Shown here in pieces: positions 42,424 to 44,968 of a DNA stretch of 64,000 nt. A model generated the notes under the pieces. It had not been told where the DNA came from. It did no database searches and worked only from the letters and a program-made list of their open reading frames with translations. Position numbers and translations under genes: made by a program. Source of the stretch: Campylobacter sp. (lineage in GTDB: Bacteria; Campylobacterota; Campylobacteria; Campylobacterales; Campylobacteraceae); contig JBQNAH010000006.1 in the NCBI GenBank assembly GCA_052170535.1, positions 15,027 to 79,026 on the forward strand, given 5' to 3'. How positions within the stretch are numbered: the stretch's first letter is position 1; each line of letters begins with the position of its first letter.

Positions 42424-43251
42424 TCATAAATTAAGATTATTCTTTTTTAATAATTTTAAATCCGCAATTTTTCCATAAATCGCGCTAAAATTTGCATCCA
42501 GCTCGGCTTTTCGCGCCTTGCAAATTTCTACAAATTTACTCTCTTTTTCGATTCCGATGAAATTTCGCCCGAGTAAATTCGCCCCGATTCCAGTCGTTCC
42601 AGCCCCGCAAAATGGGTCGCAAATCACGCTATTTTCGTTGCTTGCCATTAAAATTAGTCGCACTAGCAAAGACAACGGCTTTTGTGTCGGGTGTTTGCCA
42701 CACGTCTTTTCCCACTGCGCGATTGCGTTAAACGCCCATACGTCCTTCATTTGCTTATCATTGTTTAATTTTCTCATTAAATTATAGTTAAAAATATGTT
42801 TATGTTTTTCACTTTTTCGCGCCCAAATAATCTGCTCGGTCGAGTGCGTCAGATAGCGACAGCTGAAATTTGGCGGCGGATTGGTCTTTTGCCACGTGAT
42901 GACGTTTAGGATTTTGTAGCCCAGTTTTTGCAGCATACGACCGACCGAGAATATGTTATGATAAGTCCCGCTAATCATCAAGCTGCCGTTATCCGTGAGC
43001 GCATTTTTAGCCAGCGCGAGCCATTTAAGGTTGAATTTATCGATCTCATCGATGCCACAACTTTTATCCCACTCGCCTTTATTGACGCTGACGATTTTGC
43101 CGCTTTGAATACTAAGCCCATCGCTTGAGAGAAAATACGGCGGATCGGCAAAAATCAGGTCGAATTTGGCGTCAAATTCAGGCAGAATTTCAAAGCAATC
43201 GCCTTGAAAAAGTCTGAATTTAGCGTCTTGTGAAGTGAAATTATAATCCAT
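42424..43251 (-). CDS. dpnA: Beta-class amino-DNA methyltransferase, DpnA-like (predicted GATC m6A)
   Basis: IFADPPYFLS..G...SG..VSV.KG.WDK, WQKTNPPPNFSCRYLTHSTE, KHPTQKP, DPFCGAGTTG; closely resembles DpnA/M.HpyAIII-type enzymes. Confidence 0.85.
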   Translation of the reverse strand: MDYNFTSQDAKFRLFQGDCFEILPEFDAKFDLIFADPPYFLSSDGLSIQSGKIVSVNKGEWDKSCGIDEIDKFNLKWLALAKNALTDNGSLMISGTYHNIFSVGRMLQKLGYKILNVITWQKTNPPPNFSCRYLTHSTEQIIWARKSEKHKHIFNYNLMRKLNNDKQMKDVWAFNAIAQWEKTCGKHPTQKPLSLLVRLILMASNENSVICDPFCGAGTTGIGANLLGRNFIGIEKESKFVEICKARKAELDANFSAIYGKIADLKLLKKNNLNL

Positions 43252-43567
43252 TTTTCACATCCACTATAAAGTCCCCAATATTGGCTAAGTTGTAAATTTC
43301 CACGCTTTTATAGGCTTCTTCGAGTTTATTTTTAGCAGCCAGCCAGCCTTGACCATCGGTTATCCAGATAAATTTAAAGCCGTTAAAGCGCGAAATTTTC
43401 TCTGAAATTTCTATATACGAGCGCGCAACTTCGTTTAATTTTGAACCGCCCGTACTATAAAAATTTGCTTCAATTAGATACGTTACGCCGCCCGCTTTTA
43501 TAACGAAATCAAAAATCTTTTGATCGCTTCCTAAGTTTAGAGTGAAATTTTTACTACTGACTTCGGC

Positions 43568-43591
43568 TTGAAAGCAGATATTTTCACTCTT
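43568..43591 (+). repeat. Left 24-bp inverted repeat TTGAAAGCAGATATTTTCACTCTT
   Basis: Reverse complement of 43883-43906 at 23/24 positions; 17-bp perfect core 43575-43591. Confidence 0.95.
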
Positions 43592-43882
43592 TTTGAACAA
43601 AGTAAGCAATGCTTCAAAGTGTTAAATTTACTCATCGCCGTTCGCGATAAAAACACTGATGTGATTTTGGCAAGTGGCGAGCTAACGAAGATGGGAACGT
43701 ATTTTGAAAGTCCAGAAAAAATTTACGAATTTTGCCGCGAAACTGGACTAGATAAAATTTTCATAGACGGAAAGGTTAAAAATTTGCACGATTACGTTTT
43801 TGGAGTAGAGATCGGACTTGATACGAATGCGCGTAAAAATCGCGGTGGCGTAAATTTCGCGCGAACTATTTCAGAATACTTT
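43592..43882 (+). other. 291-bp inverted (putatively invertible) intragenic segment, 97 codons
   Basis: Encodes the middle of the endonuclease on the opposite strand; bounded by the inverted repeats. Confidence 0.85.
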
Positions 43883-43906
43883 AAGAGTGAAAATATCTGT
43901 TTTCAA
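43883..43906 (-). repeat. Right 24-bp inverted repeat (plus strand AAGAGTGAAAATATCTGTTTTCAA)
   Basis: Reverse complement TTGAAAACAGATATTTTCACTCTT differs from the left repeat at one base. Confidence 0.95.
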
Positions 43907-44072
43907 ATTTTTAGAGCCGAGCAAAAAATTAAGCGTATTCAGATGAATTGATACTTCTTGCACGTTTTTATCGCATTTTTCAAAATCAGTAAAGTAGCCA
44001 AGATTCGCATTCGTTTTTCTAAGCGAGCGTAAAAAATCATCAAATTTCGTTAAATTTCGTTCCATAAAATTC

Positions 44073-44258
44073 CTAAATTTTGATATCGGGCTCACCAGCT
44101 GCCTTAAAGTCTGCGCAGACAAAATCATCTGCACACAAAACGATCTCGCAGTTTTCGTAAGCCGCTCGCGCGATCTTACACGCTTCTTCTTTATTTTTTG
44201 CTTTAATCACGACCTTTTTTGCTAAAATTTCAGTGATCTCTACTTCAAATTCTTTCAT
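44073..44258 (-). CDS. DpnD/PcfM-like small protein (61 aa)
   Basis: FEVEITEILAKKVVIKAKNKEEA......YENCEIVL.ADDF pattern typical of the DpnD/PcfM family; TGATG coupling with the upstream gene. Confidence 0.7.
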   Translation of the reverse strand: MKEFEVEITEILAKKVVIKAKNKEEACKIARAAYENCEIVLCADDFVCADFKAAGEPDIKI

Positions 44259-44968
44259 CAAATCCCCATAGAAATTTTACCAATTTCACTCTCTTTTTCA
44301 TATTGCCTTACGATATCTTCATAGCAAGCAAATTTAACTTTTTTGCTTATACCCTCGTAAATGCTATCCTTTAAAACATTATCAAACTCCTTTTTTCTTT
44401 GAAAATCAGCCACTATAAACATTTTAGCGTTGAAATCCTGCAGTTCATAAAATTTATTTAGAGAGTTTTTAAAGTCGGTACTGTGTTCTACTTCGTAAAA
44501 TGCATCTGGCAAATTTCTACGATTAAACCATATCGCATCAACGTTTTTTGCTTTCTTTACGATATTTTCATAACTAAAATTATAAATTTCTTTTAGCGTC
44601 GTTAATTCGGTTAGTTTTTTATCAAGATAAAACTTATTTTTGTCTTGCGCTGGCACATATGTCTGAAAATGCCTCAAGTTTCCGATTTCGACAATGATTC
44701 CTTGATAATATGCGTGAGTAAAATTTGGATTTATTTCGCTTTTACCATCGCCAGTTTTAGCCGTATTTTGTGCTTCAAAATCCTTAAGCCCCCAAAGTCC
44801 GGGCCTAATTTTATAAAATTCTTTATTGGTTTGTACTATGCTTCTTATACTCGCAAACGGGGTTTTTGTTCCCCATTTACTAATATCGGTTTTAGAATAA
44901 AGTTGCGAGAAAGTAGCCATACCGCCAAGGCTGGCTAAGGCTTTTATAACGCATTGTTTTTGTGTCAT
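44258..44968 (-). CDS. Putative nuclease: N-terminal winged-helix-like domain plus PD-(D/E)XK-like domain
   Basis: N-terminal ...[11 protein letters not shown]....[10 protein letters not shown] (HARE-HTH/wH-like); C-terminal H...QG..VEIG, VDAIW...[12 protein letters not shown] overlap with the carB stop. Confidence 0.55.

Follow-up and report, generated by a model that had tools for sequence, protein, structure and literature searches.

The DNA examined here (the window, a stretch of 64,000 nucleotides (nt) at G000:C6:15027-79026) belongs to a Campylobacter genome of 1.67 Mb with 36% G+C, designated G000. It carries, at positions 43241-44065 of the minus strand, one gene for a restriction endonuclease of the DpnII family, the middle part of which lies reversed between two short inverted repeats. 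An earlier note on this sequence had read three open reading frame (ORF) fragments at the locus as pieces of a single DpnII-family gene. A Pfam profile search bears out this reading: the three pieces match PF04556 (DpnII) in order, the middle one from the opposite strand, and together they span the full-length profile, which places the gene in the DpnII family (Table 1).

The two repeats (arms A and C) are 24 nt long, complementary at 23 of 24 positions and separated by 291 nt, exactly as the earlier note had them. In the assembled orientation the reading frame from the ATG at 44065 ends after 64 amino acids (aa). Inverting the sequence between the arms in silico (positions 43592-43882) produces a single open frame of 274 aa, made up of 61, 97 and 116 codons from the three pieces. 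Both outcomes had been put forward before and both were reproduced by script; the methyltransferase gene on the downstream side is intact, again as previously described. With a repeat pair lying wholly within one ORF and an inversion that creates an early stop, the locus has the anatomy of the premature-stop class of intragenic invertons. The window shows the OFF state of the gene.

Table 1. Features of the endonuclease locus and of the genes next to it, in positions of the window.
Feature	Position	Strand	Evidence
5′ ORF piece	44065-43871	-	PF04556 profile 1-55, E 1.7e-13
Middle ORF piece	43568-43951	+	PF04556 profile 49-175, E 7.7e-32
3′ ORF piece	43609-43241	-	PF04556 profile 169-273, E 2.5e-35
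Endonuclease 5′ part, codons 1-53, fixed orientation	43907..44065	-	PF04556 1-55; start ATG 44065
Arm A, encodes LKTDIFTL; difH-like core TGAAAA-CAGATA-TTTTCA at 43888-43905	43883..43906	-	conserved in relatives
Early stop of the OFF frame, three codons past arm A	43871..43873	-	reading frame
Invertible segment, 291 base pairs (bp), 97 codons; + strand coding is the OFF state	43592..43882	+	PF04556 49-175 on opposite strand; flip restores 274 aa
Arm C, KSENICFQ on the gene strand; core TGAAAG-CAGATA-TTTTCA at 43569-43586	43568..43591	+	repeat search
Endonuclease 3′ part, 109 codons and stop, fixed orientation	43241..43567	-	PF04556 169-273, E 2.5e-35
Partner DNA methyltransferase, beta-class N6A/N4C type, DpnA/CcrM-like, intact, 275 aa	42424..43251	-	PF01555 E 1.9e-57; PADLOC MTase_II E 2.3e-100
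DpnD/PcfM-like gene, 62 aa, directly upstream of the endonuclease	44073..44261	-	PF14207 E 2.2e-15
236-aa gene at the island head, directly after carB	44258..44968	-	PADLOC REase_II E 3.3e-10; PF27126 clusters, Atlas score 0.98; weak HARE-HTH

A six-frame PF04556 search was run over all 142 genomes of the same genus and the loci were then sorted by arrangement. The gene is found in 42 genomes and the arms in 41 of these. Twenty-seven carriers are OFF, with the three-piece arrangement of the window; five are ON, that is, colinear with the same arms; nine are interrupted by contig ends; and the last, G029, has a distant colinear copy at another locus, without arms. In a second Campylobacter genus PF04556 occurs in 21 of 78 genomes, of which 14 have the arms (4 ON, 8 OFF, 2 split at the arms). 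The other seven genomes there have either a more distant and largely colinear copy (five genomes, with four intact copies and one split into two) or C-terminal fragments only (two genomes); the arms were absent from the two distant copies examined. Contiguous loci from both genera thus number 44, with 9 ON and 35 OFF. A scan for the two-arm pattern through 185,579 species genomes returned 35 loci (7 ON, 27 OFF and one hairpin-like contig, G138, described below), all titled Campylobacter (concisus, showae, gracilis, sp. or uncultured) and ten of them from the second genus; none lay outside Campylobacter. The inverton holds no constant chromosomal position among carriers. Judging from these genomes, the switch is conserved in at least 55 species-level Campylobacter genomes.

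In a 401-genome sample of the order, the three-piece arrangement is restricted to the genus of the window. The same switch was not found in other genera of the order, the approximately 30 DpnII genes there being single intact matches, and no equivalent repeat was seen in the 12 DpnII genes from other genera that were examined or in G029. Two DpnII genes from another genus of the family (G400 and G410; loci L071 and L072) contain a perfect 16-nt inverted repeat, TAATCATTTAAATTTT, with 241 nt between its arms. This repeat differs from the one described here, and as all eight full genes of that genus (g26) are colinear, nothing points to flipping there.

A gene found broken in a single assembly might simply be dead, following a one-off inactivating inversion, or might be an assembly artefact. 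In keeping with this, the window gene is broken as assembled and three of the 27 OFF copies of the genus carry further damage (G122, G083 and G148). The remaining OFF copies do not look like debris. When flipped in silico, 23 of the 27 give open frames of 270-274 codons, and a further one (G113) shows no stop in the 299 codons read, for a total of 24 open genes. Pairwise comparison of OFF genes gave a median ratio of nonsynonymous to synonymous divergence (dN/dS) of 0.12 (range 0.06-0.38) over the 147 pairs, out of 253, in which dS exceeds 0.05; G113 and the three damaged genes were left out. By this measure purifying selection still acts on the OFF genes. A stop codon lies three codons past arm A in each of the 27 OFF loci of the genus; the OFF product is therefore a stub of 61-64 aa and not a recoded protein, and a recoding function for the OFF state was discarded on these grounds.

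The two states are also interleaved among relatives. In a maximum-likelihood tree of 30 proteins (24 OFF, in flipped form, and 6 ON) orientation requires six changes, against a mean of 5.6 for shuffled labels, and well-supported branches force at least four of the six; the ON and OFF states are dispersed over the tree and cluster no more strongly than shuffled labels do. At the tips, G160 (ON) and G005 (OFF) encode identical proteins, and G105 (ON) and G006 (OFF) are separated by a dS of 0.006.

Several assemblies come apart at the arms. Repeats of 16-25 nt are shorter than the k-mers usually employed in assembly; contig breaks at the inner edges of the arms are therefore inferred to stem from a mixture of reads in the two orientations. 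G092 and G129 each have the gene spread over three contigs (5′ part, middle and 3′ part), of which the middle one, 301 nt and 307 nt, respectively, is exactly the sequence between the arms. The inner edge of arm A is the exact end point of a contig in G024, and a contig of G125 ends at arm C. Separate contigs carry the 5′ and 3′ parts of the gene in G031 and G087, the 5′ part being joined OFF-type to the segment start. G136 has ON-type junctions and a contig end 9 nt past arm C; G104 has ON-type junctions and a gap within the segment. Finally, the hairpin-like contig of G138 contains both an ON-type and an OFF-type junction on the 3′ side. This contig (G138:C25, L027) is a palindrome reading Sua5-like gene, methyltransferase, 3′ part, segment, 3′ part, methyltransferase, Sua5-like gene, and arose in assembly from mixed orientations at the switch.

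Reads showing both orientations within one culture are on record for the orthologous locus, as found by matching coordinates with a published table. The PhaVa long-read survey lists, in rows 1634 and 11483 of its supplementary file 3, an intragenic inverton in a Campylobacter gracilis reference genome, with 22-nt repeats, a 297-nt flipped segment and forward/reverse read counts of 50/4 and 2/333 in two runs (PMC10028968). In G578 (contig of 2,281,652 nt), whose gene is ON and encodes 273 aa, the arms lie at 1743913-1743934 and 1744232-1744253, that is, 22 nt each with 297 nt between them, at the coordinates of the survey table. Both orientations of the orthologous switch have therefore been observed within cultures, and the majority state was reversed between the two.

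The earlier note had proposed a reversible inversion and called for a comparison of orientation among relatives, with a one-off event as the counter-hypothesis should only the broken orientation be seen and the relatives lack the repeats. Neither is the case: conserved arms and both states occur side by side in close relatives, and the interleaved orientations, the selected and flippable OFF genes, the breaks at arm edges and the published reads all point to reversible switching. The element is very probably a reversible ON/OFF switch. A dead gene or an artefact of the assembly is contradicted by 35 independent OFF assemblies with 9 ON ones among them, by the low dN/dS, by the conserved arms and by the reads at the orthologous locus, and we regard it as very improbable.

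The structure of the arms bears on how the segment is flipped. Read from the outside inwards, each arm consists of TTGAAA(A/G) CAGATA TTTTCA, a 6-nt dyad around a 6-nt spacer. The difH sites of Campylobacter and Helicobacter, which are the targets of the recombinase XerH, have the consensus TGAAAAC---A-TTTTCAAA (PMC2731167, Table 2), and XerH is described as reading the inner 5 bp of each difH arm base-specifically while barely contacting the central region (PMC5241119). Both the published core and the 6-6-6 layout fit the arms: half-sites TGAAAA and TTTTCA around a 6-bp centre starting with C are found at 13 of 13 positions in arm A and with one mismatch (TGAAAG) in arm C. The pattern TGAAARCNNNNNTTTTCA occurs twice in the window, once in each arm, against 0.04 expected, and none of 100 shuffled sequences contained two or more matches. 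The canonical difH of the same genome lies at G000:C3:87671-87688 and has the spacer CTATAA. Since difH is a single intergenic copy near the terminus and the arms are two inverted copies inside a gene, the arms are at most mimics of a dif site and not dif itself.

Among 781 relaxed sites in G000 no other convincing inverted pair of difH-like sites was found. A lone site, TGAAAA-CAGATT-TTTTCA, is present at G000:C18:12877-12894 inside a glycosyltransferase gene; it shares 18 of 19 bases with arm A and has no inverted partner nearby.

Variation among carriers is in keeping with a tyrosine-recombinase site. In all 28 aligned carriers the base at spacer position 2 (A, C, T or G, depending on the genome) is identical in the two arms, even though in arm C the change alters a codon from Cys to Gly, Ser or Arg; in one clade both arms have changed from G to A at position 3. 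No concerted change between arms falls outside the 6-nt spacer in these carriers. The A/G mismatch in the outer half-site keeps to its flank in ON and OFF loci alike, whereas differences in the inner half-sites move with the segment. Exchange is therefore bounded to 8 nt including the spacer. In G087 (L059 and L060) both arms have G at the outer half-site position that in most genomes is A in arm A but G in arm C; homogenisation of the mismatch is therefore possible.

Third codon positions are more conserved in the two arms than anywhere else in the gene (entropy 0.38, versus 0.91), and the arms have been retained across gene divergence with dS above 1. The amino acids they encode are not conserved in 13 homologues lacking the repeat. 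Protein constraint as the reason for arm conservation was rejected on this evidence, together with the concerted base that changes an amino acid.

These data also bear on a rival explanation, in which a programmed and reversible inversion is brought about by the general recombination of the host, or by template switching during replication, between the short repeats; no site-specific recombinase would take part, and the resemblance of the repeats to difH would be fortuitous. Three observations speak for it: identity between the arms extends over 12-25 nt, the surrounding 3 kb or so contain no recombinase gene in any carrier, and AT-rich TGAAAA/TTTTCA-type dyads are about ten times commoner in G000 than base composition predicts (12 strand hits versus 1.26 expected). 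It leaves unexplained, however, the dyad with its 6-nt spacer, the restriction of concerted changes to that spacer and the retention of the arms over such divergence, and it fits poorly with a core pattern far above chance in the window and with a two-arm pattern confined to Campylobacter in the species-wide scan. We consider it rather unlikely.

If a site-specific recombinase is at work, XerH is the best placed. The XerH orthologue of G000 has 353 aa and matches PDB 5jjv with E 2.7e-92. Tyrosine recombinases number 8 in G000, 5 in G129, 8 in G092 and 5 in G578; in an all-against-all BLASTP comparison XerH was the only orthologue common to these four genomes (69-89% identity), and no other match spanning all four exceeded about 33% identity. 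Serine invertases of the Hin/Gin type were rejected, PF00239 not being found in five of the seven carriers examined (G092, G129, G138, G031 and G578; it is present in G087 and G000). For invertases of the IS110/Piv type, PF01548 was not found in G129 or G578. The likeness of the sites and the exclusion of other recombinases make XerH the leading candidate for the invertase.

Another, dedicated recombinase might nevertheless catalyse a programmed and reversible inversion, either from an unrecognised family or encoded in the island itself as the DpnD-like or the 236-aa protein. The DpnD-like gene adjoins the switch gene in every carrier whose contig covers that side, and the survey preprint states that most intragenic invertons have no known invertase (PMC10028968). 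Against this, XerH is the only tyrosine recombinase shared by the four carriers, serine and IS110-type enzymes were not found in several carriers, and DpnD-like proteins are only 62 aa long with no known catalytic fold. The 236-aa gene is absent, replaced or frameshifted in many carriers and is absent from G129, whose assembly breaks at the arms; it was rejected as the recombinase and is not required for the switch. We judge a different dedicated enzyme improbable.

To the remaining account, a programmed reversible intragenic inversion of the Type II DpnII-family endonuclease, flipped by XerH at difH-mimic arms, we give slightly better than an even chance. In this scheme the endonuclease would toggle between an intact ON form of 274 aa and a truncated OFF form of 64 aa. 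Each arm would mimic difH with a half-site TGAAA(A/G), the 6-nt spacer CAGATA and a half-site TTTTCA; the housekeeping XerH would synapse the two inverted sites and exchange strands within the spacer, and the 291-bp segment would flip. The methyltransferase would be expressed in both states, which would make switching safe for the cell in either direction. Of 44 related loci, 42 have an open methyltransferase frame of at least 255 aa regardless of the orientation of the endonuclease, the exceptions being G070, with 242 aa, and G137, where the contig ends before the gene. The resulting population would contain restricting cells together with cells permissive to unmethylated incoming DNA, and such a mixture may bring a bet-hedging benefit.

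A number of points weigh against this scheme. The resemblance to difH is limited to the 18-nt core, the outer flanks of the arms being coding sequence unlike difH, and several conserved difH positions differ: the fifth spacer base is T (consensus A), TTTTCA is followed by CT (consensus AA) and the outer T positions do not agree. Arm C has a G at a base that XerH reads specifically, and in some clades the inner half-sites are weakened (TTAACA, TTTCCA). Recombination guided by 12-17 nt of identity would likewise confine crossovers to the shared core. XerH of H. pylori depends on FtsK, and its licensing is believed to take place at the septum (PMC3325230, PMC5241119); the inverton has no constant chromosomal position. 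The excess of OFF over ON loci, 35 to 9, might be due to the active enzyme being selected against and not to balanced bet-hedging. Lastly, reversibility in the strain of the window is deduced from the genomes of relatives and from reads at the orthologous locus.

A broader proposal, to which we would give a little less than an even chance, is that XerH has been co-opted as an invertase for phase variation through difH mimics with a private spacer, set in stretches of the ORF that tolerate them; that oral Campylobacter toggle restriction in this way while remaining methylated; and that the DpnD-like protein may license XerH away from the septum.

With regard to the enzyme itself, the intact orthologue of G578 matches PF04556 over 1-272 with E 8.1e-84. 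Its structural model has a predicted local distance difference test (pLDDT) score of 83.5, and its best Foldseek matches are restriction and Can2/Card1-type nucleases, at weak significance (BstEII, E 1.4e-4, template modelling (TM) score 0.41); no solved structural relative was found by sequence. In this model the arms correspond to the start of a helix at 54-75 and to the end of a helix at 148-160 with the loop that follows. Invariant residues flank arm C on both sides: the segment contributes E134, N140 and R142-R145, the 3′ part D186, E199 and N201. Inverting the segment thus divides the conserved core. Specificity for GATC is assumed by analogy with the DpnII family. As indirect evidence, GATC shows moderate depletion in G000, its observed/expected ratio of 0.62 being fifth lowest of the 16 palindromic tetramers. 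Other tetramers are far more depleted (GGCC 0.14, CATG 0.24 and GTAC 0.26), which suggests that other restriction systems are active.

As to the neighbouring genes, the start of the methyltransferase gene overlaps the end of the endonuclease gene. On the other side, the DpnD/PcfM-like gene sits here beside a DpnII-type endonuclease; in pneumococcus, dpnD is part of the alternative DpnI cassette. The 236-aa protein has a weak N-terminal HARE-HTH match and a C-terminal part that is restriction-endonuclease-like (NmeDI_C-like), and its gene resembles that of a second restriction endonuclease. In many relatives (L022, L026, L030-L035, L040-L043, L045 and others) the methyltransferase gene is followed by a 41-aa duplicate of the carB C-terminus, which gives the four-gene island the look of an insertion at the carB 3′ end; the duplicate is missing from the window.

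A design of this kind would vary the barrier to foreign DNA without a change in the methylome and without the risk of self-cleavage. In human-associated Campylobacter the switch is mostly OFF, which bears on the trade-off between defence and gene uptake in these naturally transformable bacteria. The difH-like arms make it testable which enzyme flips intragenic invertons, and suggest that Xer recombinases may have programmed targets beyond dif. On the practical side, such genes will be taken for pseudogenes by annotation pipelines and will cause breaks in assemblies.

Intragenic invertons of the premature-stop class, as reported with PhaVa, resemble the present element in having a short repeat pair in one ORF and an early stop upon flipping, and its orthologous locus in having both orientations in cultures (10.1101/2023.03.11.532203, PMC10028968). 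The survey attaches no gene identity or discussion to the row matched above, and its main text mentions restriction once, for Type I only (PMC10028968). The locus described here differs in that the target is a classical Type II endonuclease, the element is found in at least 55 species-level genomes, and its difH-like arms point to a named recombinase. The XerH/difH system shares with it the TGAAAA/TTTTCA half-sites and a 6-bp centre starting with C, and G000 possesses both XerH and a canonical difH (PMC2731167, PMC3325230, PMC5241119). In these sources difH is a lone intergenic site close to the terminus that acts in direct repeat on chromosome dimers; the present locus has two inverted intragenic copies with a private spacer, CAGATA instead of the CTATAA of the G000 difH, at which the action of XerH is a prediction.

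Inversion by Xer-family enzymes at short inverted repeats, leading to ON/OFF or alternative expression, has been proposed or shown for XerC of Ureaplasma parvum at mba/UU172 (PMC3599477, PMC3047005) and for Xer1 of Mycoplasma agalactiae at the Vpma locus (PMC2268961). As presented there, those Mollicutes switches act on surface lipoproteins, by moving promoters or swapping gene parts, whereas the present one lies inside the ORF of a restriction enzyme of Campylobacter. In Acinetobacter plasmids, pdif modules likewise have paired Xer sites bracketing rearranged segments; these are XerC/D plasmid sites around whole resistance genes and not a switch inside a coding sequence (PMC9947245).

Programmed inversions also diversify restriction-modification within a clone in Type IIG, BREX and DISARM methyltransferase genes (PMC9881135) and in the hsdS shufflons of Type I systems (PMC7672463). 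They swap specificity modules with silent partial copies, changing target and methylome together (PMC9881135, PMC7672463); neither DpnII nor MboI came up in a search of PMC9881135. At the present locus, by contrast, there is no alternative cassette, and only the nuclease would be switched ON or OFF, with methylation unchanged; neither an hsdS gene nor a second copy of the segment was found at the locus, which sets it apart from an hsdS shufflon.

Intragenic invertons, the inversions of Type IIG, BREX and DISARM genes and Xer-driven inversions in Mollicutes are thus already known. The earlier note knew of no such switch in a DpnII-type gene. This stands insofar as our literature search turned up neither an inversion switch described for a DpnII-type gene nor an account of XerH or difH-like sites in phase variation, with the provisos that the inverton itself was already an unannotated row of the survey table and that the Nature version of that survey or its supplement may mention it. 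Repeat tracts or cassette shuffling underlie the phase-variable restriction-modification known for Type I, Type III and fused Type IIG systems. A classical Type II endonuclease toggled by an inversion in its own frame, with methylation left on, is a different design.

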